A DNA stretch of 64,000 nucleotides, taken from positions 12,772,001 through 12,836,000 of the forward strand of contig NC_087436.1 in the NCBI RefSeq assembly GCF_036321535.1, given 5' to 3'. Numbering within the stretch: position 1 is the first letter of the stretch; every line of letters starts with the position of its first letter. This DNA comes from Camelus dromedarius. Lineage: Eukaryota. The notes beneath the pieces were generated by a model, which saw only the letters and a program-made list of their open reading frames with translations, was not told where the DNA came from and made no database searches. Below, piece by piece: positions 1 to 55,270 of this stretch. A program made the translations under genes and the position numbers.

Positions 1-1544
1 TCCAGTTTATTTTTTCCACTTTTAAATGTTTCATGATCATCATTGTTGATAAAGGATAAAATGATTTGCTATGAGTCCCTCCCTGTGAAAAAAGGATTAG
101 CACTAATTTGTTTATTCCTGTGTCTCACCAGCACTTACTCATTGTAATTAATAAGGGCTTGAATCTTTAACGTAGATTCTCTTGAGTAACTCAGCAACAT
201 GGTTTAAATACAGGACATGGTAGGAAGCATCAGCACTGCAGATGGAACGTAAAAGATTTGATTCAAGCATCAGAACTTTCATAAACGTTGTTAATTAAAT
301 TTGGCTATAGAACTATTATGAAATTTCTTTCTCTGGATTTTTTAAAGAAAAGAAAATTTTCTGGGACAAACTATTAATGCTCTCCAGACACCAAATGGTT
401 GAAGGTACCATATGACCTGTCAAAGGATCTGTGACTTCTGATTCTGTTGCCCGTATGCATTATGTTAACTTTCTGAATGTAATCTTCAGGATAAGAGAAA
501 AAAAAAAGCATAGGTTTCTAGTAGAATTTAGCATCCAAGAAACTTTTCCAATACTTGTTTCTAGATATCTGTGCAAGCTAAACTGTAAAGTTGCTGATGC
601 AAGACTCATTTGTATCAGAACCTGCCACAACATAAAATGTACCGAACAAATGTATTAATACTCAGGGGAAAATGTTAAGTGATCGTAATAATGATTCTTG
701 TTAAAGAATTTGATTGCTAACATGCCTTGAATTTAGTTAGACTGGAGAGTCCATTTTTTTGTCTCATAGACAAACCTTTTCAAAATACTTTCTTTCAGCT
801 GTCCACCTGTCCACCTCTCCTTTTCAGCCGCTTTGGGTCCTCCCGGTGTGCAGACAGCAGTTGCTCTGAAACCGTCATGGTAACAAGCACTTACCTGATG
901 ACATAAGGTTAAGACATAAACAATGGAATGAACCTAAGCTTCTGAACACATCCTTGTGAAATGCAAAGATCTTTATCTGTCTTGCCAATGACACTGTCAT
1001 TAACAAGTGAAGTGTCAGGAAAGTTGGGCTAATTACAGCTGCATACAGTTCACATTCTGATCTCATAACATAGCTGTGTCGTTTTATACATGTCTACATC
1101 CATTAAGTATAATCTCCTTCTGAACTGAATAACATCTAAAACACTCCTCAGAAAGAATAAATTATGGTCTGAGAATAAATTGGGTGTTAAGAAGAACTGA
1201 TTCTAAGCAAGCAAATATGTTTCAGTGAATAAATAACATACATGCCTGCATTATTTGGTAAATGTAATATACGTATATGTAGTGTTTTTTTTGTAAACAA
1301 CAGGAAACTTTCAAGAGAAGCAAAAGTCTTAAGTTACTATTTTCCTATCACTGAGAACATTCTGAGTTTTTCAAGCTAACTCATTTATCAATATTGCACA
1401 ATAAATACAAAGAAATAAACTCTTTACATTCTCAAAACAAAGATTATAAAGCTATTACGGCTTTATCACACTTTTCTCTTTGGCATCTATGTCCTCAAAC
1501 AGAACATTTTGTTTCTGGGAGCACAAAACTGTTGAAGGAGCAAG

Positions 1545-1745
1545 GACTTGACAGTCTGGGAGACCTGGATTTAATTCCCAGTTTAGCCATCTCTTCTCGG
1601 GCAAGTTACTGAACCTCTCTGTCTCTGTCCCTCTTGTAAAATGAGCATGATAACTACTTTGCAGGAGAGTTGTAAAGACGAAAGACCTATAAGGAGGCTG
1701 CCTCATACCACAGCAGATGTAACACAGTAGTTGCTGCTCAGTTAA
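1545..1745 (+). mobile_element. MIR SINE
   Basis: gggcaagttactgaacctctct...tgtaaaatgag core. Confidence 0.65.
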
Positions 1746-3082
1746 TTTTCCTCTTCCTTTCCCAAGTGACTGGTTCAGAAACCACGTGCATCTTGAACTG
1801 AATTCCTAGCTGCCAACGATTCAAAGTGAAAAAACATTGTAGCTGATTCATAGTCTAAAATCTGAAATGGATCTTTAAAAGCCCCTAGTATCTCAATGAT
1901 TTGAAACAACAGTATTTCAGTAGGTCCAATAAAGTTATCTTAGAATTTGTTGTATTTTATGACCCAATTAGCTTCACCTTTAAATGTATATACAAGTTTA
2001 AAATCAAGATGCTCGTAGAATAAAAATATAACTGAAACGCTGAATGCAGGTATTTAATGTAACCAAAAACCTGGCAGTACCATGAAGTCAGCAAAGTAAA
2101 CACTGGAAAGAGATAGCTGGCCTTGTTGACTCCGTTAAACACGTCAAAGAACTGCATCTAAAAATATTTGAAAAATCTGCTTATTTTCCATCTGTTATAT
2201 TTCTCAGAGGAGAACTGCAAGTTCATGTGAAAGTTCACTGTAAGTTCAAGTATGTCATATCAGGTCATTTACAGGGTAAGAGTTCACTGGGAGTTTATTA
2301 TTATTTTTTAAAGACCGAAGTGGAAAAAGAATAAACATACTAATTGCAGCTATGTTATTTTGCATTATGATCACTGCATTTTTGAGCTTCATAAATTAAA
2401 ATTATAAATTCTAAAAGGCCATGTGCAACGCATAATGGCAACAACAGGAATTACAAGGAAGATGCCTAAGACAGTTGTCATATTTTACATTGTACTGAGT
2501 AATTTGTTTAAACTACATATTTAAAAATAGTAATATAGAGATACAGAAAAGAAGAGAGAAGCACCAGAGATAATAAATGAATGTCATTTCATTATTTAGC
2601 TGAATAGAGATGATCTTTAACTTGCAATTGCTGAGAATGCTATTGAGGAACACCACAGGAAACCAGAGAAGTATGTTTCATTTGGAACAAAATTACTAAG
2701 TCATTGAAAAAAAATCTAAATCGAACAGCTATTAGTCAATATTATTTGAATTACTACACAACATTGTACCTCAATAAAAAAAATTTTTTAATAAATCTTT
2801 GGGTAAAACCTTCACATTTTTTAGAATGTTTAGAACAACAATTTTCAAGGAAAATAACAGTGAACGTGTATTAAAATTTAGGACATAACTTCTGGGTTCA
2901 CAGATTAAAAACATTTTCTTTCTATAAAGTACTGGTAATCAAGAGTTCAGCAAAGGATTCTAAATGGATTGAGTAAGGGTGCAGCCCACTGATTCTCAGT
3001 TTCTCCTGTCAAATGCGTGGCCTCAGCTTCACAGTAGAACTTTAAATCTATAACTTGCTTCTTAAATTGAAAAGCACATCAT

Positions 3083-3222
3083 AGGGAGGGTATAGCTCAG
3101 TGTAGCGTGTGCCTAGCACGCATGAGGTCCTGGGTTTGATCCCCAGTACCTCCATTAAACAAACAAATACCTAATTGCCTCACCTGCCAAAAATTAAACA
3201 TTTAAAAAAAATTATAAAAAAA
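3083..3222 (+). mobile_element. tRNA-derived SINE (camelid Vic-1-like)
   Basis: gggagggtatagctcagtg A box, gggtttgatcccc B box, A-rich tail, imperfect TSD gaaaagcacatc/gaaaaacacacc. Confidence 0.85.
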
Positions 3223-4523
3223 GAAAAACACACCTGTTTCTCTCCAGAATGACTATAGTCTCTTCATGATATATTGTCAATTGGTTTCAAGGGATCATAG
3301 TATTTATTCATTCAGTCACTCAATACATGTGAATTCAGTACTTGCTATTTACAAGATGCTATGCTAAGGATTATAAAAGACACAGAAATTAATTGGACAA
3401 AAGTTTCATTTTCAAGAAGCCTACAACCCAGTAGAAGAAATATGAAATAAAAAGAATACATAAATAAGTAAATAATACAGGGTTGAAATCATTTAGGGCC
3501 ATTTGAGAGAGGTCAGTGAATGATTGAGAAGTGCTTAGAAGACACTGTTTCCAGTCAGCAGGATAATCTTGGAGTTAATTACTAGCTGAATACCTAATTA
3601 AGACGCTATTTTCTTATGTCAAATTGTTAAACATGAATTAAGAGCAAACTTATAAAAAAAAAACTCTTTACCACTTCATTCCAAGAACTTTCTAACACAT
3701 GCCATTAATCACATCACAGAACTGTCAAGTTATTTCTACACTTTGCTTTGAAAAGATGGTCCTGGAGTTGGAAACAATTATACTTTTGTTTGTTAAAAAT
3801 TTCTAGAAAGAGATAGAGAGAGAATACAACATTTAAAAACAAAACCCTTTTAGTCACTGACCTGGAATTTCAGCAATAGAGACTTGAGAAAAGTCACAAG
3901 TTACATCAGGTACCAGGCAATGTTGCGGGTCACCAATTTCATACAATATCACCAATTTCATACAATAGCTCTTCAGCCGCTGCACCAGAGGAGACTAATC
4001 CCCATGTCAGGGCTCGGATAGGATGAGCTGTCTGTCAGGGAAACATTGTAGTATGGGAAATCCTGCGCTGTGCCTAGGCGAAGAACAGGGAAGTCTATGG
4101 TTTAGAGATGTCAGGGGGAAAATCCAAGGGAAAGAGACTGCATTATACCAAAAGATACTTCTGATGAATGACAATTATCCAGAACTCACTGCGCATTTTG
4201 TATACTCTATTTTTATATTTAATTTTATAACTTTTAAAATCACACAGTGATTTATTAATGTGTATTAAGTACTAAATACAGACGATACCTGGGGGCCAAA
4301 GAGAAAGAAATCGTATTGAGAGGAATGGATGAATATTTAGTATAGAAATTCAGAGACTGTTTTTCAAAAGGTTTGGAAATGGTATCCGGGTCCCCTTGAT
4401 GTGAGAGTGATGAGAACCCCAGCTGATGGAACATGACAGTCCGGGATAAGAAGTCAGAGAGAGTGGGCCTGCAGGAGCTGTGATGGCTAAAAGCACCTAC
4501 ACACCATGAGAATCCTGCCCAAC

Positions 4524-4996
4524 TGTAAGGACCCTGTGGGGTCTTCCAGGGTCAGACCCCTCCCCCACATCCTCTGCTGCAGCTCCTCTCTGAAGTACCC
4601 AGATAACAGTATCTCATGTGTATTTTCTGAGCTTTTCAGATGTTAAAAACCACCACCAAATGGTAGAAATTAACTACTTGATGATCGAGAGCTCGTGGCC
4701 CCCAGACCTTCTGGTGCCCAGGTTTGGACAGTGTTGACCGCCCTGTTCCCTCCACATCAACCAATCAGAGGATTGTGCATGAGCTGATCACGTACCCTGT
4801 GACCTCCCCCCCAACTCCCTTACCTGGCTTTTAAATATACTTTGCTGAAGCCCTTCAAGGAGTTTGGGGTTTTCTTGGGCATGAGCTGCCCTGCCCTCCT
4901 TGCTCAGCCCTGCACTAAACCCTTCTCTACCCCAAACTCCGACGTTCTGGTTTGGCCTCACTGTGCATCAGACACATGAACTTGTGTTCAGTAACA
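4524..4996 (+). mobile_element. Solo LTR (ERV1-like)
   Basis: TG...CA termini; homologous to 16059-16533 and 23650-23915 in the opposite orientation. Confidence 0.8.
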
Positions 4997-5517
4997 ATCA
5001 GATTTCTCTGGTCAGGAAGCTTCACTCCATTGGTGACCGGCTGAGTTTCTCCTCCCTCCTCTTACTGCTTGTTATAAATCCAAGCAGGTGAGACTTGGGC
5101 CACAGCTTTCAAAGAGCCTTTAATTTATAAAATTGACCTTTTGTTCACTAAGAAATATAAGATAGTTAAAAAAAAAAAGAAAAAGAAAAAGGAGAAATAG
5201 AGGGTAACTTAGAGATGTCACCTTTAACCCTAGTTTGGTGCTAAAATGGCCATTTAGTAAAGTTCAATATTAAACACGATCTTTTTGAATAATAAGGAAA
5301 AGACTCCTCTTTGATTCTGGGAGAAAAAAGAGCATTTCATTATGGTAGACCATAATATAACCTTAAAAGTAAAAGTGACAAGGTCATAAATACAAAAATA
5401 ATGAAAGCTAATGCACTTTATTTCAATATTTCTAAAATGTACTGAAGGACAATAAAATAAGCTTGTTCTAAAAACAAGATCTTTTGATGGAAAACAAACC
5501 ACCTTCTCAGATGGAAA

Positions 5518-6063
5518 TGTTAGGTAGTTAGATAAGTGGGGGCACCGGGCAATAAGGTGGAGGAGCGGGAGGAGGGTCCTGAAGATGGTGTTATGCCTGC
5601 CTTCAGCTTAAAGGGGCTTTACTTCCACTAAATGAGCGCCAGCAAGAAACTGATGGCCGCAACTCCATGGTAGCAACAAGGACCTAACCAGACATGACCC
5701 AATGCTCACTGAAATATAATTAGCATTATGGTTTAGGCTTCCCACCCTCATGGTTTTTTCTGTGTGCGTCACGGGTAAGGACATGCACAAAGGGGACAAA
5801 CATGACTAAGCACTTCAGGGGCAAGAGCTGTCAATCAATCAAGAGACCCCCTCTAGGCAAAGGGATAAGAGAAGGGGGCAAAGATCATTGCTACCCTCCC
5901 TTGGATCAGCCTGCCTGCTGTTCTTGGAGGTGCAATTTTGCGCCACTAATTGAATCTTTAAATTCTTTTCACTGCACGACACTTATGTCTCCCGTCTGAA
6001 TTCTTATCTTTCAGGCAAGACAAAAACCAAGGTTTTTTTTTTTCTTCCCCTTTTGGGGTAATA
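5518..6063 (+). mobile_element. Solo LTR (ERV-like)
   Basis: tgttaggtagttagat start, LTR-like U3/R/U5 composition, ggtaata end. Confidence 0.6.
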
Positions 6064-8668
6064 TAAAGACATTATAATGTCAGTTCTACCAAATTTATAC
6101 ACTCAAAAGAAAACCAACTGGAATCATCTTCTTTAGATAAAAGAATACTGAGTTTCACGTGGAAGAATAAATGCCAGAGAACAGCAAAGCACTTTTTTAA
6201 AAGGTGAGGGCAGTGAGGAAGGACGTGGCTCATCAGATTGTAGAACATGTTATCTTGTACCCGTATGAGACTGTTGCTATATGCATTTGCAGCCACATAT
6301 GATTATCTGAGGATTAATAAAACGTATGAAAGAATGTATGTTAGAACAGTTAACGTGAGTACATGGGCAGAAGTGGTGCTGACAGCAAGAGAGAGAAAGT
6401 GAGTGGGAAAAAGGAGTCAAACAAAACATTTTTAAAAGCTGCGTTAAAGAGAGCATGTAGGATAAAACCACATTTACTCACTTATGATAAATATTTTGTT
6501 TGTGTGTGTGTATCTCTAGATCTACCTACCTAGAGAGATAAATGTTTTAACTATTAGAGAAGAAAGAAGGACAATTCTGAGTAAGAAGGAAGCATGAGAA
6601 AATGACTTGAGAAGTGGCTTGCAGTGCGGGCGGGGGCAGACCACGGGCTGAGCTGTCTTCCTTGACCATTTGATCTCTTGCTCTTTAGCACTCTCTAATC
6701 ACAGCTTCCCATCTCAGAATATATCCTCTTCCTCCCACTATCTCTGAATTTAAACTCTACTCTCCCACGATCCATCTTTGCCCTGGCCCTCCCTTCCCTG
6801 GGCTGCACACTCCACGCCATCCATCCACTCCCATGGCTTTGACACTCAGCTCCCACTGAATGCCAAGTAAATCTCTGTGTCTTTTCCTCACATCCCCTCA
6901 AGCTACGTTCCATTGCTTGTATGTCCCACAGTTATCAAAACCTAAATGAAATGCTGCTTCCACCTCCTGTTACTACCATTTTTGCAACTATTACTACCAT
7001 TACCATCACTGCGAAGTGCGGTGGTGTTACTACCACCATTATTACTGTCTCCACTGGGTATCCTTTTTTTTAGTGTTTACCGTGTGGCAGGCAATGGACT
7101 CACTCTTGCCAACAGCAACCCATTTATTGTAATCTTTACAGCAACCCTATAAGTAGGTATCATTATCCATATTTTATACCAGAGGAACTCATACCACCAT
7201 AATGGAGTGGTGCAACACCCTTGTGGATCAAATCAAAGCATGCCTCTATTCCTGGGTTAATGCAATCTACCACCTTTTATTAGTCTACAAATATCTGATG
7301 AACACTGAATTGCAAAACAATAAAAGTGATCATTTTACTAAATGCTTACTATATATATTTTGGTGCTAAGTGCTTTACATTTATTATTTTATTCACTCCC
7401 CCTTTCATAATAACCCTATGAAAGCAGACATTACTATTAGCAAATACTCTTCCAAGTCCCTTATTGTATTGGGGCCTTCCTGAAAACAAGTTTGATGTCT
7501 TCTGTACTGAGGGCTCCCAATACCAGTCTTTGGCAGGTGCCCCCTCAGTGATCACTCTACAGAGCTGAATGGGTGTAATGATTTAATAACAGTTAAAACT
7601 GGAAGAATTTATCTTTAAAAAAAATTAGTTTTAAAAAGACACCAAGATTTAGTTATAAGGATATCCACTGTAGCTTATTTAAAATAGAAAAGAAAAATTG
7701 GGACCAACATATATGTCTACTTAAAGACTGGTCCTATCATTTGTACCATACACTAGTATAAAATTTACTGCCATTAAAAATGATGATTTGAAAAATATTT
7801 AATGATATTCCTGCTCCAAGTATGTAATTTAAAAAATAAGGTTCTTAGTATTCATGGTACAATCTCATTCTTGGTTGAGATACATATGTTAACATTTCCA
7901 TGTGTATAGTCCGTAGTGTAGTGGTCACCACAAGGAAATGTGATGGACGTCCCCCCGCATCCCCTACCATCTGAATTTGGTTCAGATGCAGAGACTGATG
8001 ATAGCGAGGCTCTCTGGGGAAGCGCGGTCTCCTAGCAGACCTCAATAGCTGGAGAGAGCAAGGAAAACAGACTGGCTTGCACTTTACTGCAATTCAGGGG
8101 TCACCACCCCACCCACATCCTTCAGGACACTCAACATTTACTAAGCACCAATGAGGCACAAGGATGCTCACGGGAGCCAGGGACACAGAGGTGGAGGGAG
8201 CTTCTGGACATGCCATTGAGCTGGGGGACCACGAGCCCCAGGAGTGAGGTGAGTGCTGCAGGAATGCAGAGGAGGAGCAGGAGGCAGAATCCCCACTAGA
8301 CTTTGTAAAAGGTGTGCTTAAGCAGAGGGAGAAATGGGTAGAGTACTTGTGTAAGGTTGTGATCAATGGAACAGCACTGAAACCAACCACAGTCTTTCCA
8401 CAAAACACACCTTTGCTGCTCCAAAAACTGTTCTCAGCTTCTCAGTCTAAATCCCTTCCAGTTTGCTGTGATCGGGGTCCACTGTGGACAGCCCCGTGAC
8501 AGACACCAGGCATTCAGGGGGTAGGAAGTGGGATCCTTGGCTTACAAGGAACTCAGCGCACAGGGAGGCAGACGGAGCCTCCCCTCACGTTCCCCTCATG
8601 GATGCGGATGCACTTTCCGCTCCTCGGGGCTGCCACAGATTTTACTCACCTGTGCTGTCCCCCCACCA

Positions 8669-8699
8669 CCCGCCCCGCCCCGCCCCGCCCCGCCCCGCC
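8669..8699. repeat. (CCCCG)6 tandem GC-box array
   Basis: Directly visible; TATAAA at 8730-8735. Confidence 0.9.
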
Positions 8700-9545
8700 T
8701 GCAGCACACACCTGTGCCTCACAGCGCTCTATAAAGCAACTGGCGTTTCAAGTTCACGGAGCCCCCAACCTCCCAACCTCTCACAACCAGTGATTTTTCA
8801 TCCCCATGGGTTAGAGCTGAAATCCTTTTTCTGTGCTGCTGTGGGTTTAGATACACCACCATATCACAGCTACAGCTGTCAGAGAATTTTTCTGCATCCT
8901 TTACTCTGGGCCTATTGTGTGGTCTGGGAGGTTCAAAACTATGGTGGTTGCTGAGAAATTTCTTTCGATACTCCTAAGAGTTTGTGCTGCTACCTGGGCA
9001 CCCTGGGAGAAAAGCTTTCAAGATGATCAACTCTTTGAAGCAACATGCATCCACCTACACCTGGAAGGAAGGAAGGATAGAAGAGAGAAGACGAGGGAGG
9101 AGTAAAGTGAAAAATGAGAGGGAAGACCTCATCCAAGGCACGCATCCATGCTTTCAACGGTGTCTGGAAATTTCTTCCCGCTCTCCATATCCAGGATAGC
9201 TGACCCTTGCAGAGTCTCCTTCTATAACTATTTTGCAAAAAAAGGTTTTAAATCTTTATTCACATAACACTTACTTTTCATCATACATGCTAAAACAATA
9301 AAAAAAATTGTAATATGCAAGTAGAAGCCTATACATTTCATTATTGGAATGAGTAAACTAGTATGTATTGAAAAAGGTATTCTGTTTCAGGGACTTTTCC
9401 TACAATGTTTCATATAGGCAGCTATCACAGCCCCCATTGGATAGATGAGAAACCTGAACCAAAGAGGGGCTGAGGAAGCCTAGGGGCGAGGTATGCAGGT
9501 TCTGGACCCTGGGCAACCCTCCTGGCTTCTCTGAGCTCCTGCCTC

Positions 9546-9640
9546 TATTTTATTTATTTTTTTAATGGAGATACTGGGGATTTAACCCAGGACCTCATGC
9601 CTGCTAAGCAGCTGCTCTACCACTGACTTATACCCTCCCT
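9546..9640 (-). mobile_element. tRNA-derived SINE (Vic-1-like)
   Basis: Reverse complement of the same head and tail. Confidence 0.85.
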
Positions 9641-11917
9641 CTCTGCCTCTTTAAAGTAAGACACCATAATATCTGTCTCACAGGACTGTTGTAAATACAC
9701 ACAGGATCCCTTCTCGTTCTTGCAAAGTGATTTACCAAATCTGAAAGGTTCCACCGCAATTTATCTCCAGTAAAGAACCACGCTTCCTATACTCAAAGTT
9801 AAGAATAAAAGTTGCCAATACATGTCCCTAAAAGACCTGCGTTTTGCTTTGGCATTTCCCACCCCCCCCCCATAATCATTAGGTTCACGTACATGTCCGG
9901 GGACTCCCGATGCAGGCACATCTTCCCAGGCTAAGCCCCGAAGCGCCGGGCAGAACGTGCTTACACGGTGATCCCTACGCCTCCCCCAAACAGGCTCAGG
10001 CTAGAGTTACGGAAAGCAGGACAAACAGCCTGAAAACTGTGCGACCCCCGCAGCGCTGGAGCTGCTTAGAGATGGTCATTCACGTGTAACCACCTCGCAG
10101 GGTCTCCGGGCTGCCGAGGACACTTCCTGTTACTCTGACGCCCGACCACAGCCCCGAGCCGCACCAAAGCCAAAACGTGACTTCACCACCAAGGGCCAGA
10201 GCTAGGACTGCCCAACTGGTAAGTCCCTGGTACGGAATCTGGTGTCATACATGATGATACAAAAATGCACATGATATAGAACACAGCAGAGCATGTTATA
10301 CATCATGACAGGTACGTTTTACGCTGTGTCAGTTACCAGTGCAACAGCGGGTGGTTAGAGTTCAGGCTATTAAAGGTCAGATGTTGATATTCCTCAGCGG
10401 AGACCTGCTTCTCAGGGTATTACTGTTTCCATCTTTGTTTTCTATAAACACATTAAATACATTTAAATCTCCCTAGGGGTATTTTCCTTTGCAGAAAAAA
10501 CAGGTCTATGGTTTAATTCTCTTGGATAAGATTCAGCATGTTTGTCATCACAATGGGATCATTAGAGCAGAAGTCTCTCTCTTGCTAACGTGACATCATA
10601 TTTAAAATAGACCAACAGATCGTTATGGCAGCAAATTCATTCACAGTAGTTACTTCTTTGGTAATGTACAAATAAGAACCTCTTTTTAGAGGAAGGATAC
10701 AGATGAGCTAAAAATACACTATCTACACAGACACAGGATGGCTCTCAAAGGTTCTCTCCACAGCTGTTTTCACAAATCATAAATCTAACCCTGCAGATAG
10801 TACATTGCGCAGGCCTGGCTCCAGGAAGAGAAGCTAATTAGCAGATCTGTTCTGTTTACACTCAAACAAATGAGTCTATGGTTTTTCTGTGGGTTCCTGA
10901 CAGCTCATACCAATATTACAAATATACAAGGACCTGCAAAAATATTTGCATTTCACAAGTGGGATTTTACCCCTTTTGCATTTCACTGGGAGCCAAACTC
11001 AGATGGTACTAAGGAAGGAATGTCATGGAAAGTATGATGCTTGCCTGAAACATTTAGCTTTTCACATAAAGTGTTAATGAAAGAATTTGTTAATGTCATC
11101 TCCTTTCTGGTTGTGACACAGAAAGTGTCACTCGCAGCAAAATCTGTCCACAGGAGCAAAATGATGGTAAGATTAGAAAGATACTGACTTGTGCTAAGAA
11201 ACTTCACGTTTTGTAAGAAGCACAGTTTCAGTTTAATCTGCCGCGTCCCAAGAAGGGTCCAGAGTCATTTTAAACACTGCCTTCAATGAATATCAATAAA
11301 TCTTTCACACCACACATACGTGGTTTATGACATAAACGGATGGCCAGTCTGGGCAGCTGACACAGCAGGTTTTATAGCCTAACAGATCAGAAAGGGCTCA
11401 ATCCAGAGCTCAGTCTTTAGAGTTAGACCAAAAACCAATGATTTGACCAAATTAAATGATCATAGTTGTTTACCACATGATCTAATAGCTTCTTGCTTAG
11501 AAGGTGTCACATAAACGCCTGTCACATCTCCTGTGACATCAACTCTGGTGACAACTGCTATTTTCAAATCAATGCCAGCCCTCCTGGCCACCTTGTCAAA
11601 GGCAGGAGCACACGCTGGAGGACTGGTACCCCCAGCACTGCGGATCACATGCACACCTGCCAGAAAAGAAACACCATGGCGACCACTCTGACGTGACCAT
11701 CACCAATTTACACTCAGTGAACTGCTTTCTTTTCCCATTGTTGTTGGGTTGTTTTTTTTTTTGGTTATGTTTTTGTTTTTCCTTTTAGCAGCAACCACAC
11801 CAAAGGCAATGGCATCCCTGGAGAATATTTAAGTGGCTACAGCCACTTCTGGTGTTTATGCTCCTCAGGTGCGTGGCTAGTAACAGATGTAAATGGAGGT
11901 ACAATCGTTAGGTCTTT

Positions 11918-12163
11918 TTGTTGTACTTGTTAACTGAAGTACAGTCAATTACAGTGTGTCAATTTCTGGTGTACAGCACAGTGTCCCAGTCATGCATATA
12001 CATACATATATTCATTTTCATATTTTTTCCATTAAAGGTTACTACAAGATATTGAATATCGTTCCCTGTGCTGTACAGAAGAAATCTGGTTTTTCATCTG
12101 TTTTTATATACAGTGGTTAACATTTGCAAATCTCAAACTCCCAAATTTATCCCTTCCTACCCC
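11918..12163 (-). mobile_element. L1 3' end fragment (camelid lineage)
   Basis: Matches the other L1 3' UTR copies; TSD acaatcgttaggtctt/acaactgttaggtctt. Confidence 0.88.
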
Positions 12164-13459
12164 ACAACTGTTAGGTCTTAAGAAAAATATCTGTGGACTA
12201 TTAAAGCAATGATTAGTTTCAATCTTTGAAATTCTCTGGATTTTCTAAATAATCCTCTAGAGAGGATTGATCCAATCAGTTACCTTTCAGAAACTCTGAC
12301 TTTTAATTCAATCTCTGACAGTGATTTGCTGAGACAGGCCAGGTATAGTACTACGGAGTGCTTGAGCCAGAGAAGCAAACAAAATTCCAGCATTCTGAAG
12401 AAGACAGGACTTAAGTGATCACCTAATTCACTAGTTCTTATCTTTCTAAGGCTCATGATCCTTTGTGGGGTCTGATAAAAGCTGTGGCTCCTCTCCTTAG
12501 GGGAGAACAACATATTTTGTTTATACTTTCAGAGGAATCTCAGATTCCCTGAAGCCCATCCTTGGATACTGGATTAAGAAACCTTGACCTCATCCAGTCA
12601 CCTCGTTTACAGATGAAGAAGTTAAGGTGCAGAGAGGCTGAGCGCCTCGGCCAGGGCCGGGCAGCTGGTTAGGGACACAGGCAGGAGGAAGCCTCGCTCT
12701 TCCCACTCCTTGTCTGCAGTGTCTCAGGGTCAGACTCCATGTGGACCTGTGTGTGGGGTTAAGGACAAGGGCCATCAGGCAGTGTCTGCAAAGATTGGCG
12801 GGCTCTGCTGACCGCTCCTATTAACCGTCCAAAGAATGATTGGTGAGTCTATGTGATTAGAATTTAAACCCCCTCGTCCTCTTTCTAACCAAGTATGATT
12901 CTTTCTATGTTTTCACTCTGCTCAACCCACTCAGGTACATCTGAACCCACCCCGTCCTCCTCCCACCCTCGTCCACCCACCAACACTTTCTTAAAACACC
13001 CTCCACACTCCCCAGGTTCTTCCCCTGTCTCTGCACTGTTCACCCTTCGCCTCCCCTGCATTTTACATCCTTCTCCAAGTCTCTCCTCTCCCCAGGGGTT
13101 CCCTACAGCTCAATCCTACCCTCCTTAATATCCATTCTCACTCTTTCACATAGAAATCCTTCTCAATACTGGCTTCAACTGTTACTCCCTTTGAATGGAA
13201 GTTCCTCCCCCATCCTGCCTCCCGTCCACCCTCTCCTCTAAGAAGCGCTAGTGTCTTGGTCCTTGTTTATACTGTGATGTCTGGCTCTCGGCCACGTAGC
13301 CAGATTCATGGACAATTTATAATTCCAAAATGAAAGACAATATACAAATAACAAACTTACCACCAATACCTGCGGTTCATAAGAAGTTTTGGTACGTCTG
13401 ACACCTTGCTTTCTTTTTGCCTTTTTCTCCGGAACTGATTTTTTTTTAAGGGGGATATA

Positions 13460-13473
13460 GCTCCCCCTGGTGG
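13460..13473 (-). promoter_or_regulatory. CTCF motif CCACCAGGGGGAGC
   Basis: Close match to the CTCF core consensus. Confidence 0.55.
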
Positions 13474-16058
13474 AAAATTATGATATTTAAAAAACAGGGC
13501 CTCCTAACCAGTGTAACGGGAAATGCATCAACAATAAAACTAAAGGGTACGTGATAACTACATCCAGACCATTAATTGCTCAAAGCTCTGCATCTTATGA
13601 CCTTAAATAACAACACATCCTAAGGGATTTATCCTTCCTAAGCAGAGATACATTTTCAGTACTTGAAGAAATATTCAGTAATGCCACCTCCGTACCCGAC
13701 TGCAGAAGACTTCCTTTGTTAGTTCAGTAAATCACAGCACTGTGATAATGAGGCCAGAGCCCTGGATTTGGTTCATGCACGGTTGGCAGCTGCTATGGGT
13801 CCAGTAGCCACCAGTTTCACTCTAACTCCAGCAAGTCATCTTAGTAAGATTTACCCTGAGCCACAGAAGACCCAGGGTGAGAGAGCAAACAGCCACAATT
13901 CTAACCCTCTAACTGGAAATCAACCCAAATATGCTGGTGGGTTAACAGTGACTATATTATTAATTATTCTTTCATCTAATGGCAACTTCTTTCCTCAGAA
14001 CCATCTCAAGGTGGCTGATAAAGTCCGTTTAAATGTTCATTGAGTTATTTATTTACTTTTAGTGGCTGTATCATTCAAACAATTTTACTTACATAATTTT
14101 ATGTATAAATCCTCTCATTCTTAAAATTTGACATGCACTGAATGCAGGAAATTAAGACGATTTAATGAAAAGCATTTTTCAGATGAACTTCTGTATGAAT
14201 GTCCTTTATATATGAGGCCCTGGCAGTCTGTACAAAATCAGGAACATAGCCCAAGGCCTAAAATATAAACCTAAATGTGTTATGCACTATAAAAATGTAT
14301 GTAGTCAACTCAAAAGAAACAGACTAATCAATCTCTTAGTTACTTGCAAAACTATATTGCATATTAAGTATTTGTAACGTTTATGTTGCCTGCAAAGAAC
14401 TAGTCCCAGATAAATTTGAAAATATAATCAGTCAGTGGAAAGGTCTAACATTGTGTTCAACAGAAACAGAACTTTCATCAGCGCCAAAGTGATGAAATAA
14501 GGATAATAACTTTAAAAAGTAATCACTTCTCTTGTGTGATCTATTAGCAATTTTATTTCCAAAGTTTCATTAAAAGCTAAATTTCGCAACCTTATACGTG
14601 CCCTCAGTATTCATTATGAAAACCCAACACTAATTCTCAGGAGAGGCCAGTGACTTCACATGTAGTTGATAGATTGTAGAAACAGATGCAGGAGACCAAA
14701 AAGGTAGATTGGGGTAAGAGTTAATAGGAATGATGCAGTTAATCAAAAGTTCCTCATTTGCAGTCAAACTGTAGTTTAAGGCACAAACTGGAGAATTAGC
14801 TGTGTTACTGTGGGTTCATTTTTTTAAAAAAATGAATTCTACCAACTAAAAGCAGCTACTTACCTGGACTAAATATCACCAAGTCAGCGACTTAACTATA
14901 CCAAGATTTTTACAGATTCTCTAACCAGAGAAATCATGTGGATGGTTCTCTTGTCTAAATGGAGTTTCTGCTGGGATAGTCCAAGCCTCAGGCCAACTTC
15001 TAGGCCTTACGTATTAAAATAAGAAAATTTAATCCACTGGAACTAAATATTTCAAGGTTAGGACTAACGTTTATCACATGCTGTATGTAATGGCATAAGC
15101 AATTTTCCTTGTGAATAAAGCTTTTCCCAAATACAATTTTAGTGGATACACGAGCTTTCATTGCCTGGATCTCTCATCACTTACATAACCACTTCCTTAT
15201 TCGGACCTTCAGTTTTGTGTGTGTGCTACACATAAGACTGTATTACCAACTTCGCAAGCAAAGCTCTTCCACAGTTAGCTGTATTTCCTTAAGATAAGTC
15301 TGACTTCAATGATGGTAAATAGCCAAGCGACCTACATTTTTTTTCCAATAAGAAGATCTCGCATTTTAAAGTTTTACAGTAAGTCACATAAACATTGCCT
15401 TGTATAATTAGCCAAGTGCGGTTACATGGCCACTAAAATGACCACAGCACTTACAGAAGATTTTGCTTTCACAGCAGTTAGCAGACACATGTTTATCTCA
15501 GAGATAATAAAAAAACCAAATAATCCAGCTGTTCTCCACACAGTAGCTGAGGAACTAGAAGCAAAACACAAGGTGTAATTTACTTTTTAAAGTGTGAGTT
15601 TAACAGTAATTTAAGTATATTGGGAAAAAAATGTGTAAAATCTTATTTGCTTTACATTACCCAAGTGCAGAAGCTGTGGATACATACTTACGCATTTTGC
15701 AGTTATGCCCCTTGGAACCCTTTCTATCTCAGTGAGATTTTGGCCATTGTATTTTAACAACCAAGCACTGTCATTTTGGGGTGATAATCCACACACTGAA
15801 CCATGCTGACTAAAGGAAAAGTAATTATAGGAAAATAATAACAGAAAATAGTAACAGAAAAGGCAAGAAAATAGAAAAACATCTATAGCAGTGGTAGCAG
15901 ATGCCCCTGTCCCCAGCGCTCTCCAGAAATTATCTCCCTTGAATGGCAAGGATCTCTCGGTAAAAGAAGTGATGTATTTTTAATGCATCAGGTGTAAAAT
16001 CGTCTTTGCTTTTCCAAGCTCATAATCAGTTCAGGCAAAAATCAACTCTGCCCCTCGC

Positions 16059-16533
16059 TGTTACCGAAGGCAAGTTTAAGTGCCCGCAGTATCATGGGGC
16101 CAAACTAATTGAAACATGAGTTTGGAGCAGAGAAAGATTTACTGCAGGGCCGAGCAAAGAGGATGGGGCAGCTCATGCCCAAGAAAACCCAAACTCCCTG
16201 AAGGGTTTCAGCAAAGCCTATTTAAAGGCCGGGTGAGGAATGGGGGTTGCAGTGTACGTGATCAGCTCGGGGCACAATTCTCTAATTGGTTGATGTGGAG
16301 GGAACAGGGCGGTCAACACTATCAACCCCAGGGCACCGGAAGGTCTGGGGCCCACATGCTCATGATTATTAAGTAGTTAATTTCTTCCTTTTAAGTGGTG
16401 GTTTTTAGCATCCGAAAAACTCAGGAAGTATACATGAGATAGGACTATCTGGGTGCTTCAGAGAGGAGCTGCCCAGAGGACATGGGGGAGGGGTCTGGCC
16501 CTGGAAGGCCCCCCAGGGTTCTGCTCGGTTACA
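16059..16533 (-). mobile_element. Solo LTR (same family as 4524-4996)
   Basis: TG...CA termini, 4-bp TSD tcgc/tcgt. Confidence 0.82.
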
Positions 16534-19500
16534 TCGTGACTTTGGCTAGGATGTAAACATGAGAGGTCAAAGCGAAAATCTGCTTTAGTTTTCCTCCTTC
16601 CATCATCCTAAAAAAAATTGGCTGTCCTCAAGTTATTCCCTAATTAAAAACCTCAGAGGCAATTCCCAAAGTTCAGGACAAGAGACCTAAAAACTCTAAA
16701 GAAAAATATGATCATAAGATTTTGTTTTTTCCAAAACAGTGGAGGTAGGGCTAAAGGTAGGAGCTTGGTCTTAATGTGGTGTCCCTAAGTCTCCAGCACT
16801 GTACTTGATGGGCACTTAGCAAAAGTTGGTTGACTTGGTGGCTGAATTAATCAGAGAGTATATTTCAAAACAGCTTTTTTTCCTTAAAGGTTTCTTCACT
16901 CTCATTTCTCATAAGCTATTATGACATGGCCAAGGATTACTTAATCCTCTAATTTCTTATTAACTGCCAGAAAATCCTTTCTCCTAACATACTGAAATTC
17001 CTAAAACCTTCTGTAAAGATTCTATGTAAAGGTTTTTCACAGGGGAGCATTTTCCACTAGGTCAGAGACCTTGACGCAGCAAAGTCTTTTTTAAATTTGT
17101 AAAGTAAATGCAGAGTTAGAAGTACTTCTTAATTACTGAGATGGTCATTTACACACTTTCCCCTGTATAATGCAACTATAATGTGCTATAAGACAGATGG
17201 ATGGCTTTTGCAATCATAAAAGAGCCAACTCAGACATAACGTGATATACATATTAGAAAACCATTAAAATATGAGGAGAAATTATTGAAAGACAAATGAT
17301 CCTATAATTAATTCTATGTTATTTCTTTGACGGAAACATTTTCCGTCAATCTCCAAGTAAACCATTCTACAGACTACACAGAACAGAATCTTTTCATTAG
17401 GGACTTCAGAGAAGGAAGAAAAATGTCACTTGGGGATTTCAAGTCAAGACGTTTAGTAAAAGTGTGAAAGTCAAACAAGGCATGACAAGTGGTTGTGTCT
17501 GCCATCGTGGGAATATTGTGGGAAGGGAGAAAAGAAAGACAAGAACAAATGGATGCCACAAAAATCAGACAAAGCCCGCTTTGTGGCTGACGGATAATTC
17601 AAATGATCACCCTAGGCTGCACAGACAATGCAGAATTCAAGACAGAGATGTAAACCGCATTGCAAATTAGTGGCATGTATTTTTAAATGTTTCTTGTTCA
17701 GACTCTTAACTCATCATCTCTGCCAGTGTTTCAAGAGTCCAGAAGCAAATGGAGTGACTCATGAAATCTACTTTCTTGAGGAAAGGTATCTGAACAAGTT
17801 TAAGGCACAGTGGAAAATTTCAAGAAGGAGCAGAACTGGCTGTGGTCTGCCTTCCCTTCAGTGCCCAGGAACCTGCAAGCAGCCCAAAGCCCAAAAGGGA
17901 AGGTGTGAGGATGCAGAAGGAGCAGAGACCCAGCCGGATGACTCTCTCCCCAGGGCTGCAAGGCATCCTCACTGAAATCACCCTCTGTGGGGACAGAGCC
18001 GGAGGGTTGGAGGTGGATTCGACTTTGTCCCACTCTAACTGCTCTAACTATGCGGCTGAGGGCTACTGGATTAAATGAATGGACCTGCTTGTACTCTGTG
18101 TTAATTAGAACCTTTTTAAAAAGTAAGTAAAGATGAGAATATCAAAATAATCATCTTAAAATATTTCTCTACAGTTTATATGTATAAAAAAAAAAAAACA
18201 ACCCATTCTTGTTCTTTATTGAGAGCCTTGGGTTTTTGAAAGGTAAACAACTTGCTAAATTTGGTATAGATCTGGAGATAAAACTAAGGAAGACCAATAG
18301 AAACTATCTTGGTTCAGGAAATAGGTTGTATTTTGTCTTGTATTTCTATGGCACAGCACAGTGCTCAAAAATTATTATTGCTAAGTAAATACTAAACTAA
18401 AACAATTTAAATTATGTACATATTCCAGAATTCCTGATGAATAAATATGAGACTCATAGATATTCCTAAGGAATAAGTCTAAGTACAATTAATAAATAAC
18501 TGATACACTGTGTGTGAGTCAGTGTGCCAGGCAAAAATGGATAAAACCCAGTCCCAGTCCTGTGAATGCTTGCCAGACCGTCTGGCTTTATTGGAAAATA
18601 AAAGCATTTACTGGCCATACTCAACTTAATTGAAGAAGTCTCTTCAAGTGTAACCACCCAGGGTCAAGCACACCGTTATCTTCTCCAGGTCTAGGACAGC
18701 TCTGTCCTGTTGAGCCCTCGTACGTTGGGGTCATCGGCCTCTCAGCATGAGATGGTGCACTCTGCGTGGTACCCTAGGGAGCATGGGCGGCCGCGGGGCC
18801 GCCGGGGCCGCCGGGGAGGCGGGGCCGCGAGCTAGGAAAGACTCAGCAGCTACCTCGGTTGTTTAAATCATTCTGAACCTGCGTGTACTAAAGAAGGTGC
18901 TGCAAACCAAGGAAAAGGCACATCACAACCTAAGCAGGACTGCTTGGGAATCCCTAGGAAGGTTCTAAGCTGTCTCCACTTATCTAGTAGTCCTGTAGAC
19001 TATTATCCTTAAATCTCCACCCATAAGAATACAGAATCGGTCCTGGGGTCTCAGCCCCACCCCCTACAGCAGTGCCCTCGGAGCTCCTAAACTTAAGGTC
19101 TTAAGAATATGGCCCACACCTTGGAGTTTCAAGAACAAACTATCTCAAGGTGAAAAAAAACTTCGCGTATGCTGCCTGGCTTCCTGCTGTCGCCAAACAG
19201 CCCGTATTGCACGCACCTTGTACAACTGGCCTGGACTATACTGTAGCAATAGACTGTGCGTTTCCTAAAAAGAAGGACGTGTCCCGTTTCGCTCTGAATC
19301 TCTAAGGCCTAGCTTTGTGTACAGAACTAAACGAAACAGTACTCATCCAGCAGGACCATGCCGAAGAAATGGAAACTGACAGCTTTTCTCACCAGCCATT
19401 TACTTAGATTACCTGTGGGTGACTTAAGTGACTGAATTTGTGCACAGGTTTTTGTGAGACACTGGGATAATAAAAAATATATGTATATTGCCTACATATT

Positions 19501-20132
19501 GGCATAGCAGGGCCAAAGGATAAGGGAAACATATGCAGGAGTAATGGGATGTCAGACAATCAGTTCCACTGGAACATTTAGATATGAGGTATAGATGCCA
19601 CTATTACTATTCATTTTCTAATGTGCACTCTGTGATGAGCACTGAAATGCTAACCTCACCCTGAAATGTTTAGAACAGGACATGGCATAAAGTAGTCCTC
19701 AGTAATTTTAGTGTGATAGGTGTATGCATGCCTTTAGAGCTTACAAAGTACATCCCTATATAAATAATCAAAGCTGCTCAATTTTTAGCCTCTTCATAAC
19801 TAAATGCTTTGAGTACATTTATGTTTCATCTTATAGTCACAATAAGGCTTTGAGGTATTGTATCATATCTACCCCACAAATGGAAAAGGGACCTTCTGAG
19901 AGGTTCACACTACCAGAGAGCGTGAAACCAGGATTAGAAACCTGATTTATCCAACTGTAAAGCCAGGGTTCTTTGTAGAATACAAACTGGACCCCCAATG
20001 TGATCTTCACTTTAGCCCCGTGATATACACGGTACAAACATTAACCTTACTTTACCCCTGTGATATAAATATTACAAATATCATTTTACAGATTTGTTCC
20101 TTTAATAAAGACGTGTTGATAACCTTACAAGC

Positions 20133-20467
20133 TGCTATGGAATGAATGTTTGTGTCCCCATCAAAATCCATGTTGAAATCCTAAGGCCCAATGTGGTGGT
20201 ATTAGGAGGTGGGGCCTTTGAGCAGCGACCAGGTTATGAATGGGATTAATGTCCCTTATAAAAGAGACCCCACAGAGCTCCCTAGGCCCTTCCGAAATGT
20301 GAGGATCCAACAAGGAGCCTTTGACTTGGAAGAGAGGCCTCCCCCAGTGGTGCTAGCACCCTGGTCTTAGACGTCCAGCCTCCAGGACTATGAGAAATAA
20401 ACTTCTGTTGTTCATAAGCTACCCAGCCAGTGGCACTGTGTTGTAGCAGCCCAGAGAGACTAAGACA
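20133..20467 (+). mobile_element. MaLR LTR (MLT1-like)
   Basis: tgctatgga.tgaatgtttgtgtcccc start, aataaa, gactaagaca end. Confidence 0.85.
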
Positions 20468-20469
20468 CA

Positions 20470-21550
20470 TGGCAAGCACCGCTCTGGGCACTGGAAACAC
20501 AGCAAGTGATCAAAACCATCTTTGGAGTTTACATTCTGGGAAGAGGAAAACAAAAAATCTCAACAAGTACTTGTCAGCTGCAAGCGTTGTGGAGAAAGAT
20601 AATGCAAGGTAAGGAGTTAGGATGGACCAAGAGGGGTTGGGTAGAATTATACCTATTGGATGTGGCGTGATCAAGAGGAGGGGCCTTTGATAAGATACTG
20701 GAGGGAGCAGAGACCTGAAGGAGGTGGAGCCAGCCATGGGTTGTCTGGAGAGACCAGAAAGGGCAAAGTCCCCAAGACAGGGATGTTCTTGGCCTACCGG
20801 AGTCAGAGCTGGGAGGTCAACATGCCAGGAGTGTTAATGGGGGCAGGGGTTGGGGGAGGGCTGGCAAGAAAGAGAGAAGGCCAGAAAGGAGCTGAGACTA
20901 AATTACATAGTCTTTCAGGACACTGTAAGGACTTTAGATTTTACGCTGAAGGACATAAACCACTGGGCAGATTTCACCCAGTGCAGCACATGCCCAGCGG
21001 GAGACTAGGTGGGAGGCTGTTGCGATGGTCCAGTTAGAGGGATGGCGCTTTATATTAGACTGATAGTGAAAGACAAGTTTGCCTGCAAGGGTTTTGTCCT
21101 GAGCATGGAGAGATAGCGTTGCCAAGAGTGGGGGACGATCTGGGGATGAAGATCAGGAGTTCAGCCTTCAACATGCTGCTTCTGAGATGCCTTTTACCGA
21201 GGATGTCAAGTCGGCGGCTGGATCTGGATTTTACAGGAGGACAAGTCCATGCTGGAGGCATAAGTGTGCACTCTGTCAAGGCACTGATGGTAAATATCGG
21301 AGAGGGGAGCATCTAAGGAGTGGGTGAGTCAGAGGCAAGGCCATCAGTGCTCCACACCTTCACCTTTAGAGACAAAGAGGATCCAGTCAAGGCGACTGGG
21401 ACGGAGTGGGCAGAGAAGAAGGAGGAAATCTTCATACAATTTCCAGAAGAAAGCATTTTAGGAGAAAGTGATCAGTTTGGTCCAATACCACTGATAAGTC
21501 ATGGAAGATGAGGGCCAAGACTGACCACTGAATTTAGCAGCCTTGGCTGA
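20470..21550 (-). mobile_element. L2 fragment
   Basis: Purine-rich antisense L2 motifs such as caggagttcagc...gagatgcc and gactgaccactgaatttagca. Confidence 0.65.
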
Positions 21551-21805
21551 TTGATGGAGGTTATGAGTCCTAGCTTCCCTGAAATGAGAAAAACAAGGTC
21601 TGAAAGATTAATTCAATTGAACAACCAAGATCACATAGCCAGTTAGCAACAGAACTGGGCCCAGAACCAAACGCTGAACACAGGCCTTTGGAAGTCAGCC
21701 CTGTTTCTTGAATCCCAGACCACACTCTTCTTCAGTAATATTTTGTGATGTCATTCTTCCCACAGTAACTGCCATTCATAAGGGAGACTCTAAAAGCACT
21801 CTAAG

Positions 21806-21917
21806 GTGGGGGGAGGGTATAGTTCAGTGGTAGAGTGTGTGCTTAGCATGCATGAGGTCCTCGGTTCAATCCCCAGAACCGCCATTAAGAATAAATAAAT
21901 AAATAAACCTAATTATT
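21806..21917 (+). mobile_element. tRNA-derived SINE (Vic-1-like)
   Basis: A and B boxes, (aaat)n tail, TSD aaagcactctaag/aaggcacactaag. Confidence 0.88.
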
Positions 21918-22529
21918 AAGGCACACTAAGATGGTAAGCCAAAAGGAATAAACCTCAGTAGAACTGAGGGCATGCTGACAGTCAGACAATAGTTTAGTAT
22001 TTCATGACAGAAACAATGGCTCTCAAATCAAACCAAACAGACACTGCAACCAGGACAGGACCAGGTGTCAAACACAACGCGATGCAAAGAAATGTTTACA
22101 TCTCCTAAAAATGAATTCTCTGTTTATAGTGTTTTGCCACATGATTCTCATGGAAATAATGAGATGAATCAACACCTCAGGCCTGACTGCCGTTATGTTG
22201 TTAGTACTATGTAGAGTCAGGGGATCTGAGTCCCCAGAACTCTTTCTTTCATTTGACTTATCAAGGTGCTCCAAAAGGGGGAGGGGAGGATATATTTTAC
22301 TTCTTTAATAATTCAAACAAATGTTTAGGGGGCCAAAGGCACAAGAAAGCCCCAAACCATTCAGGTATGAAAGACATAGTTTTAACAGTCCCTACTCCTC
22401 CCTCAAACGCACAACCCCCAACAGCAAAAGAGGCTCGATCATTTAAAGAATCCACTCAGTTGCCAACATTTGCTGAATGACTTTGCAGACTAAGAAGTTA
22501 AGATTTCCAAAGGGAAGAAGAGTGGGGGA

Positions 22530-23180
22530 TGGGTGAAAAGGATCCGGACCGGGCTCTGGAAAGGAAAGCGACCCAGCACGGGGCGGGGAGGGAGGCGCTG
22601 ACCGTCCCAGGGCATCTGCAGCGGGGGCGCATGGCGGGGCTGGCGGGGCTCTCGCCTCGCAGAGTCCGAGTGCCATCGCTCGGACCTGGGCCCCAGACCC
22701 GGGGTCTCCCTCCAGGGCTGCAGCTGGCTCGCGGCGCCCGCCTTCCCGCCTCTCTTTCCCGGAACGCGGGGCAGAAGGGATCGCGCGCGCGAGCGCGGGC
22801 CGCCGCTCGGTTACCTGACGCCGCCGTGTCTCCCCAGAAGGCGGAGGCGCAGCGCTTCAGCGCTGGCCGGCACCCCCGCGACCGCCTCGGCCGGGGTGCC
22901 GAGTGTCCGGGACCCGGGGCCCAGGCCGGAGAGTCGCCTGCAGCAGGTGCAGCGCCCGGGCCCCGCTCCTGGCCCCGCGCGTGACAGCCCCGAGCCCAGG
23001 TTCCCGCGCGCTCGCTCGGCCAACCCGCGGGGTGACGGCGCCCGCGCGCCCCCTGCTGGCCGGGCCCCACCGCGCGCCCAGCCCGGCTCTGAAGTCCCCA
23101 GGTCTGGCCTCGCTGCGCTCAACATCTCAACAAGCAGGACCGCCAAACATAGTTCAGGATTTAGGATCGCTGGCTCAGCT
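22530..23180. promoter_or_regulatory. CpG island with minus-strand splice donor
   Basis: Very GC/CpG-rich stretch in an AT-rich context; minus-strand CAG|gtaacc at 22815/22814. Confidence 0.85.
23046..23061 (-). promoter_or_regulatory. CTCF motif GGCCAGCAGGGGGCGC
   Basis: Consensus match, but inside a GC-rich island. Confidence 0.65.
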
Positions 23181-23649: not shown

Positions 23650-23915
23650 TGGAACAGAGAAAGGTTCATTGCTGGGCAGAGCAAGGGGGACACATGGCTC
23701 ATGCCTCCAAAACCCCCAAACTCCGGGAGGGTTTCAGCTGAGCATTTTTAAAGGCCAGCCGAGGGAGGGCATCCCAGGGACTATAATCAGCTATACAGAA
23801 TTCTGAGTGGTTGATGGTGATCAATCCTTGGGCACCAGAAGATCTGGGGCTACATGCTCATGATCATCAAGTAGTCCATTTCTTCCATTTGGTGGTGGTT
23901 TTCAGCATCTGTAAT
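23650..23915 (-). mobile_element. Partial LTR (same family as 16059-16533)
   Basis: Shared blocks such as gcagagaaag...gctcatgc...gggtttcagc...catgctcatgat. Confidence 0.75.
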
Positions 23916-23934
23916 AACAAATGAATAACAGAGA

Positions 23935-24270
23935 ATATAATTATTCCCATTTTACAGTTGAGACTGAGACACAGAGAAGTAGGTACATTTCCCAAGGTTA
24001 CGCAGCCGGAAGTTATAAAGCTGGAATTTAAACCTAAGTGGTCTGGCTCCAGTGTCTGTCCTCTGAGCTCTCATATAATAAATACCGCCTCAGAGAAAAA
24101 TGAACTATGATCTCACTTAATCCTCACAACAAATCCACCAGGTGGATACCACTGTCTCCATCTTACAGGCAAAGAAGTGTAGGTGCAGAGAGGCTAAATC
24201 ACTGTCCAGGATCGTGGAGCTAGTACGTGGTGCAGGCAAGACTGGATTAGTAACCGCCAGTCTGATCCTT
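23935..24270 (-). mobile_element. Two MIR fragments
   Basis: cccattttacag...gagacacagagaagt and ccatcttacag...agagaggctaa cores. Confidence 0.65.
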
Positions 24271-54258: not shown

Positions 54259-54819
54259 ATGAGTTATTAAAGAAAGGGATGTTCTCCAATGCTCCTGGTA
54301 TGTAGCCGTGGGAAGGTCAAATATCCCATTTAAAAGAAAACTGAGGGTTATTTTGTTTTTTGGGGGTTTTTTTTTGTATTTTTAAGTTATGTTTACTCAG
54401 TGGCAAATATTTAGAAGACTGGCTACACATTTCGCTCTCATGTGTAAGTTTTGACGTGTAGATTCAGTTTAAAAGTGAAGCATAATTACAGCTACAGAAA
54501 CTCTATTCTTTTTACATACATTATATATCATATAAATAAAAGCTATTCCAGTCCTGCCAGATGTGATGGCATAAGAAACATGTGAATCCTTGCATTTAAA
54601 GACTTGTAATTTGTGGAAAATTATATTAATTTCAAGGGATAAATGCATGAAACACTTCTCTTAGTAGAGCTAAAGAAAACAGGATATAGTCATCTCTGGG
54701 GAAAAAATGTAATTCACAGAGGTTATGGTTTAAGAAACGGAAAAATTCTCAATTTCTTTCTGTTTTTACATTTGCAAAGATATCCTTATTATCACATGCT
54801 TTAAAAAATGATACTCCTG

Positions 54820-55239: not shown

Positions 55240-55270
<31 letters not shown>

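Follow-up and report, generated by a model that had tools for sequence, protein, structure and literature searches.

In a 64,000-nucleotide stretch of Camelus dromedarius DNA (contig NC_087436.1, here C1, positions 12772001-12836000; this whole stretch is referred to as the window), the broken gene on the minus strand beside FGG is almost certainly the orthologue of a vertebrate AtuA-family gene, decayed into a unitary pseudogene that cannot make the AtuA protein. This AtuA-family pseudogene is single-copy and long dead, lies between FGG and LRAT, and is not lectin- or EGF-like. An earlier reading of the window, made from its letters alone (the sequence-only reading), had proposed a dead multi-exon minus-strand gene head-to-head with FGG; that gene exists and starts in a CpG island at 22.6-23.1 kb. 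It had also placed a unitary pseudogene in the FGG-LRAT interval, reading away from FGG, and 14 colinear exons bear this out; the intact orthologues which it thought might survive in other vertebrates were found as full-length AtuA-family proteins.

The identification started from a single exon. Among 33 frame translations, the only one above the Pfam cut-off was the stop-free frame of the block beginning at 11656, which matched AtuA (PF07287, E 5.8e-6); three further Pfam matches in this set had E values of 0.01-0.05, all below cut-off, and an NCBIfam search gave no useful result. Exon 4, within this block, reaches 25.8 bits and exon E9 23.1 bits (E 3.9e-5) against a curated cut-off of 22.8, while exon E11 matches Pfam AtuA at E 0.008. 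Used as a query against 1.84 billion representative proteins, exon 4 found 16 fragment matches, one of which, bird-like, led to full-length orthologues of about 645-713 amino acids (aa) with PF07287 (446-454 bits) and PF23544 (120-123 bits). Such proteins are present in birds, reptiles, amphibians, fish (as lratb.1), echidna, marsupials and a mole. In the C-terminal ferredoxin-like PF23544 region, pseudogene exons E18 and E20 align and two segments are missing. The vertebrate gene (fish lratb.1 / si:ch73-132f6.5, chicken LOC100857197, Talpa LOC119234757, Pteronotus LOC129061551) is orthologous to the camel pseudogene and has the same order of parts, but it is intact and uncharacterised in those species and broken in camel.

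Genome-wide searches, which score the best candidates only, point to the same locus. A six-frame AtuA search of the whole 2.3-Gb genome gave three matches, none of them above cut-off, the top two of which lie in the window in the order of the profile; with the bat protein as query, 10 of 13 matches, the top ones, fall at the FGG-LRAT locus and the other three have E values above 4. Neither search found an intact AtuA copy or paralogue in the 2.3-Gb genome, and since an intact copy would outrank the matches found, the gene has no intact paralogue there. The pseudogene aligns over 479 of 661 residues, with 333 of 444 identical to bat (75% over aligned columns). In a tree of 433 columns, built with 27 selected relatives and omitting isoforms as well as the majority of birds and fish, it falls within the placental clade with support 1.0, on a branch of length 0.27 compared with 0.02-0.10 for bats.

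The exon map was obtained by aligning orthologous proteins to the window and 140 kb downstream. The 14 colinear minus-strand exons, seven of them inside the window, span about 88 kb in total, as follows:

22550..23150, no strand: CpG island, presumed promoter and exon 1; GC 0.76, CpG observed/expected 0.91-0.98 versus about 0.30 in the flanks
22815..22970, minus strand: exon 1, leader region and CASAFWGDTAAS motif; GT donor intact; one frameshift
15455..15554, minus strand: exon 2, aa 70-103; frameshift of one base; both splice sites (AG, GT) intact; score 102 versus control 27
14188..14257, minus strand: exon 3, aa 104-126; donor TT; score 94
11526..11656, minus strand: exon 4, aa 127-170; open frame; score 131
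9133..9221, minus strand: exon 5, aa 171-200; donor AT
4074..9132, minus strand: interval lacking detectable exons, expected site of aa 201-274, the highly conserved core
3862..4073, minus strand: exon E9, aa 275-340; interrupted by two in-frame stops, with a small deletion and a tandem duplication of 19 nt
776..894, minus strand: exon E11, aa 362-397; net 12-nt insertion
C1:12770847-12770736, 12767435-12767338, 12744742-12744703 and 12736893-12736842, minus strand: exons outside the window, part 1
C1:12728757-12728646, 12722936-12722812 and 12707290-12707213, minus strand: exons outside the window, part 2

Exon 1 scores 93-97 against aa 7-69 of the bat protein, and the true in-window exons tested against that protein score 93-199. 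The gene runs 65 kb past the window edge, its last exon reaching C1:12707213, 19 kb before LRAT; the top-scoring genomic match to the LRAT family is C1:12687452-12687835 on the minus strand. On the other side FGG, whose exon at 41408-41590 matches fibrinogen gamma with E 2e-35, lies head-to-head with the pseudogene on the plus strand from about 37.7 kb (start judged by eye), 14.7 kb from the CpG island. The fish name lratb.1 is the sole pointer to the position of the intact gene and hints that it, too, lies between FGG and LRAT. Two smaller CpG-rich patches, at 18700-18900 (observed/expected 0.82) and 9850-10200 (0.73), are probably repeat-derived.

Lesions are spread along the gene. The position corresponding to bat Met1, as placed by alignment, reads AGG in camel exon 1, and there is no in-frame ATG within 23200-22815. 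Frameshifts occur in exons 1, 2, E9, E13, E15 and E18; E9 holds two stops and the stop of E20 comes four codons early; non-canonical splice sites stand at the donor ends of exons 3, 5 and E16 and at the E20 acceptor. Furthermore, the coding segments aa 201-274, 341-359, 537-564 and 608-636 have no credible match on either strand of 204 kb or genome-wide, the best scores in 204 kb being 35-44 and off-position. For aa 201-274, a segment with many residues that do not vary among 28 sequences from animals and bacteria, the best score was 23-29 in the expected interval and 42-44 at maximum in 204 kb, with a genome-wide best E of 4.3. Block 2157-2071 was considered as aa 341-359, which it resembles by eye, yet its score of 23 is at control level. 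At positions invariant in 16 vertebrates, 38 of 167 residues are altered in the pseudogene, a few of these being exon-edge artefacts. With neutral rates assumed to be 2.2 to 1.5e-9, this level of about 0.11 substitutions per site would take roughly 48-76 million years to build up, a crude figure that is inflated by CpG decay and edge artefacts. Three similar elements resembling long terminal repeats were seen by eye at window positions of about 4540-5040, 16070-16530 and 23650-23950; one of them falls inside the interval with the missing core exons.

The gene is retained in a patchy fashion. Our survey covered annotated proteins, namely the best 120 of 7329 matches and the members of ten clusters, and is thus not a genome test. 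Among the matches listed, the placentals that keep the gene are 15 bats (Pteronotus, two Saccopteryx, Rhynchonycteris, Miniopterus, two Pipistrellus, six Myotis and two Molossus) and three eulipotyphlans (Talpa, Condylura and Erinaceus). The models of Erinaceus, the hedgehog, end before the C-terminal domain, which reflects either partial loss or model error. At least 11 marsupial genera, herbivores included, have the gene among the matches listed, which contain no primate, rodent, carnivore, ungulate, fruit bat, afrotherian or xenarthran. As an intact placental gene would be expected near the top of the ranking, repeated loss among placentals is likely, as judged from these protein sequences. 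Shrews, horseshoe bats, pangolins, tenrecs and armadillos are likewise not among the 120 listed of 7329, which may reflect loss or poor annotation. The bats and eulipotyphlans that keep the gene eat mainly insects and other small animals. However, a simple explanation of retention by insect diet is weakened because herbivorous marsupials (koala, wombat, wallaby) keep the gene as well. Pteronotus keeps it and no phyllostomid, horseshoe or fruit bat is among the matches listed; judged from absence only, loss accompanying a change of diet within bats is possible. Unitary pseudogenes of metabolic enzymes are known from GULO and UOX, and diet-linked losses from the CHIA chitinases. The camel gene resembles these cases in being a single-copy gene decayed in place, with patchy retention and insect-eaters among the keepers. 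The model from Pelobates and one more contain unrelated, fused domains and are apparently chimeras created during annotation. In addition, four genomic fragments of exon 4 carry flanks resembling the window introns, and one of them shifts frame within exon 4 at a place where camel stays in frame, which points to an independent lesion in a different mammal. The literature searched, which excluded subscription papers and most supplements and in which broad searches covered the best-ranked items only, contained no report of a vertebrate AtuA gene or of its loss. A transcriptome study of sole (the fish) lists a transcript named lratb.1 as a lecithin retinol acyltransferase whose expression is induced by an agonist of retinoic acid (PMC7691524). 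In the fish proteins named lratb.1, Pfam shows nothing but AtuA domains, and the name is misleading: these proteins belong to the AtuA family and not to the retinol acyltransferases.

What the intact protein does may be approached through its predicted fold. A model of the mole protein (mean pLDDT 69) matches chain A of citramalate lyase 9EVF, the ADP-pyruvate complex, with a Foldseek E of 2e-19 and a VIA Z of 29.2 (420 residues aligned, root mean square deviation 4.1), the next structure having a Z of 10.5. Chain B is matched more weakly (probability 1.0, TM 0.68 of target, E 0.017), and a profile search agrees on citramalate lyase with E 7e-5. The vertebrate protein is 15-17% identical to CmlA, and 47-50% identical over about 90% of the length to full-length bacterial AtuA (47-49% for the bat protein). 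The first 35 aa of nine intact orthologues contain 3-10 basic and 0-1 acidic residues, and these basic, acid-poor N-termini suggest mitochondrial import of the intact protein. In the Atu route, a beta-methyl group is carboxylated, hydration follows and acetate is then released. AtuA has been tentatively assigned as HIHG-CoA:acetate lyase (PMC4847356), and Cml is described as splitting citramalate directly into pyruvate and acetate (10.64898/2026.01.16.699985). AtuA would thus fit the slot of acetate release, because citramalate lyase solves the same chemical problem. By this analogy, the ancestral protein may have been a lyase of the mitochondrial matrix that freed acetate from methyl-branched acyl-coenzyme A (acyl-CoA), an assignment to which we give nearly an even chance. 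The intact protein would be a nucleotide-binding carbon-carbon lyase, the one-chain counterpart of citramalate lyase A plus B, that removes the free carboxymethyl arm of 3-hydroxy-3-alkylglutaryl-CoA as acetate. The carboxylate would be activated as an acyl-phosphate, as the ADP complex suggests. This cleavage would be the final step of a carboxylate-hydrate-cleave route, stripping the beta-methyl branch of isoprenoid-type acyl-CoAs so that beta-oxidation could continue.

Both reference systems differ from the vertebrate gene in other respects. Pseudomonas AtuA, from the acyclic terpene pathway atuABCDEFGH (tentative EC 4.1.3.26), has the same two-domain architecture; however, the vertebrate gene is eukaryotic, with about 20 exons, a mitochondrial-type leader, and no operon or AtuF-type partner seen. 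Citramalate lyase CmlAB (9ERQ, 9EVF) has the subunit A fold, and probably that of B, which the vertebrate protein unites on one chain, but it consists of two subunits, takes a free acid as substrate and serves a separate pathway.

Bacterial neighbourhoods give a further indication of the chemistry. In five of six inspected plasmid loci with AtuA, carboxylase, hydratase and dehydrogenase genes adjoin, four of the five carboxylase-bearing loci being near-copies of one cluster, and the bacterial AtuA relatives include one in a canonical atuA-F-like cluster. Among the metagenome AtuA loci of at least 15 kb (29 of 80), a hydratase occurs in 25, an acyl-CoA dehydrogenase in 19, a carboxyltransferase in 18 and a biotin carboxylase in 8. 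These loci are of microbial type (47-61% identity, one 38%) and include no vertebrate DNA; none of the 28 recurrent neighbour representatives belongs to the HMG-CoA-lyase family.

If the AtuA pathway was lost, a partner gene should be dead too, a prediction set beforehand. With a bacterial carboxyltransferase adjoining atuA as query, the camel genome showed intact-looking loci on contigs C3 and C2 and a stop-bearing match on C14:

About C14:20,080,400-20,102,400, minus strand: MCC-beta-like carboxyltransferase pseudogene, six colinear pieces with stops and a frameshift

This multi-exon pseudogene represents a third carboxyltransferase gene and a fifth carboxyltransferase-domain locus, and is 41% identical to the C3 gene; one of its pieces has no match in the PDB. 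It is perhaps the orthologue of chicken MCCC2L. The AtuA gene and the C14 carboxyltransferase are hence both dead in the camel genome, and coincidence of the two losses is possible given how common old pseudogenes are. It might be speculated that vertebrates ancestrally had a mitochondrial, bacteria-like Atu route for beta-methyl-branched isoprenoid acids, that it disappeared independently in most placental lineages, probably humans included, but persisted in insect-eating bats and moles, and that the two dead genes are its fossils. The lost route would carboxylate, hydrate and cut off acetate, with the AtuA lyase and the third carboxyltransferase as its parts. We regard this broad scenario as possible rather than probable. 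If it holds, non-placental vertebrates degrade isoprenoid acids by a route that most placentals lack. The gene loss would be invisible to human- or mouse-anchored screens, should these species lack the gene too. The present identification also corrects the misleading fish label lratb.1, connects an orphan enzyme of vertebrates with a lyase fold that was solved recently and with another dead gene, a carboxylase, and makes AtuA catalysis testable through the bat, chicken or zebrafish protein.

Several points weigh against the proposed lyase and its pathway. The identity to CmlA is low, and a shared fold does not show the substrate; the literature searched holds no vertebrate AtuA with a tested function. 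A review gives the HIHG-CoA lyase step to LiuE (PMC4097962), and knocking out AtuA in a fungus left growth on citronellol normal, a connection with complex I being reported instead (PMC13399572). The C14 gene matches MCC-beta (E 9e-8) better than the beta subunit of geranyl-CoA carboxylase (E 8e-4), is not nested with AtuC and branches outside the sampled MCC and AtuC groups, and no extra, sixth biotin-carboxylase gene was seen in the genome besides five loci. Of the metagenome loci, 51 of 80 were too short to be assessed, and four of the 28 neighbour representatives are without a Pfam family.

The pseudogene would be the same if the intact enzyme acted on another hydroxy-acid, either a free acid or an HMG-CoA- or leucine-type intermediate. 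This has in its favour that the one solved structure from the family considered here belongs to a citramalate lyase that works without CoA, and that both the dead carboxyltransferase on C14 and several of the bacterial neighbours resemble MCC-beta; the identity of 47-50% to AtuA of acyl-CoA clusters versus 15-17% to CmlA speaks for the acyl-CoA substrate instead, so that we consider another substrate rather unlikely, though a serious candidate.

A second alternative accepts that the coding gene is dead but proposes that the promoter in its CpG island remains in use, driving either a non-coding transcript or an LRAT isoform that starts far upstream, in which case some blocks of the sequence-only reading could be exons of such an RNA. 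The island is intact (observed/expected 0.98) although the coding sequence has been decaying for tens of millions of years, the LRAT gene is on the same strand 19 kb beyond the last exon, and minus-strand GTAA[GAC]Y sites are mildly enriched, 44 against 31+-6 in shuffled sequence (reached in 3% of 200 dinucleotide-preserving shuffles). There are also human LRAT annotations with long 5' extensions toward FGG. RNA runs share 0.09-0.23 of the words of 9000-16000, a figure that does not count as evidence of expression. On the other hand, CpG islands can persist without selected function and the remaining splice statistics are at chance, and continued use of the promoter thus appears unlikely.

A decidedly improbable option is that the intact protein is a non-catalytic mitochondrial regulator, a partner of complex I like Verticillium VdAtuA3. 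The latter resides in the matrix, interacts with VdNuo1 and shows no citronellol defect, but in the same paper non-fungal homologues have low similarity and no interaction (PMC13399572). Moreover, many invariant residues are common to the vertebrate protein and bacterial AtuA.

The sequence-only reading had itself assigned the gene to a secreted or membrane protein with C-type-lectin-like and EGF-like modules. The lengths of its seven named blocks (179, 106, 111, 183, 99, 87 and 241 nt) and their preceding AG are as described, but most of them are no exons. Blocks 15042-14864, 13466-13361, 12394-12284, 11143-11045, 2157-2071 and 1135-895 score 22-28 against the bat protein, where random intergenic control pieces have means of 26-30 and maxima of 36-39. 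For the remaining blocks of the "about 11", which come without coordinates, the guessed positions 15810-15694 and 240-139 also score at control level, and exons 2 and 3 are absent from the named blocks. The donor at 22815 and the acceptor at 11656 are genuine; block 11656-11474 is the only one of the seven to overlap a true exon and overruns the true donor at 11525 by 52 nt. As for the claimed GT donors, block 11143-11045 ends in GC, that of 2157-2071 is weak and splice scores are mixed, while the "donor" after 895 is an AtuA acceptor followed by the first codons of true exon E11. None of the seven true in-window exons has the symmetrical phase 1-1 that had been put forward: exon 1 ends in phase 1, and the others are 1-0 (exon 2), 0-1 (exon 3), 1-0 (exon 4), 0-2 (exon 5), 2-1 (E9) and 0-2 (E11). 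Splice-site density is near that of the shuffles, with eight GTAAGT versus 5.7+-2.5 (24% reach eight) and 78 exon-like pairs versus 64+-10 (7%). The cysteine-rich reading of the 11656 block lies in a separate frame with five stops, and none of the 33 frame translations matches Lectin_C, EGF or GAIN at E<=1. Instead of a secreted or membrane protein, the gene encoded an AtuA-family enzyme with a mitochondrial-type leader. A dead lectin/EGF modular gene might still be nested in the AtuA introns, as the blocks do carry AG and, in most cases, GT at their ends, some of their frames have a lectin-like or cysteine-rich appearance on inspection and short frameshifted pieces could escape Pfam; with one block being AtuA exon 4 and one "donor" an AtuA acceptor, however, we consider this very improbable.

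That the lesions and missing exons are assembly errors in an intact gene has a negligible probability: although they are known from the assembly and not from reads, they extend across most of the 14 exons and include substitutions at invariant residues, and 0.96-0.97 of the words of 9000-16000 are present in six runs not labelled as RNA, of which one may come from the very sample that was assembled.

Beyond the pseudogene, an L1-like fragment was noted by eye in the interval separating FGG from FGA, at about 54800-56000 on the plus strand. The tandem repeat of FGA, with a 39-nt unit and also recognised by eye, lies at window positions 63830-64000 on the plus strand.

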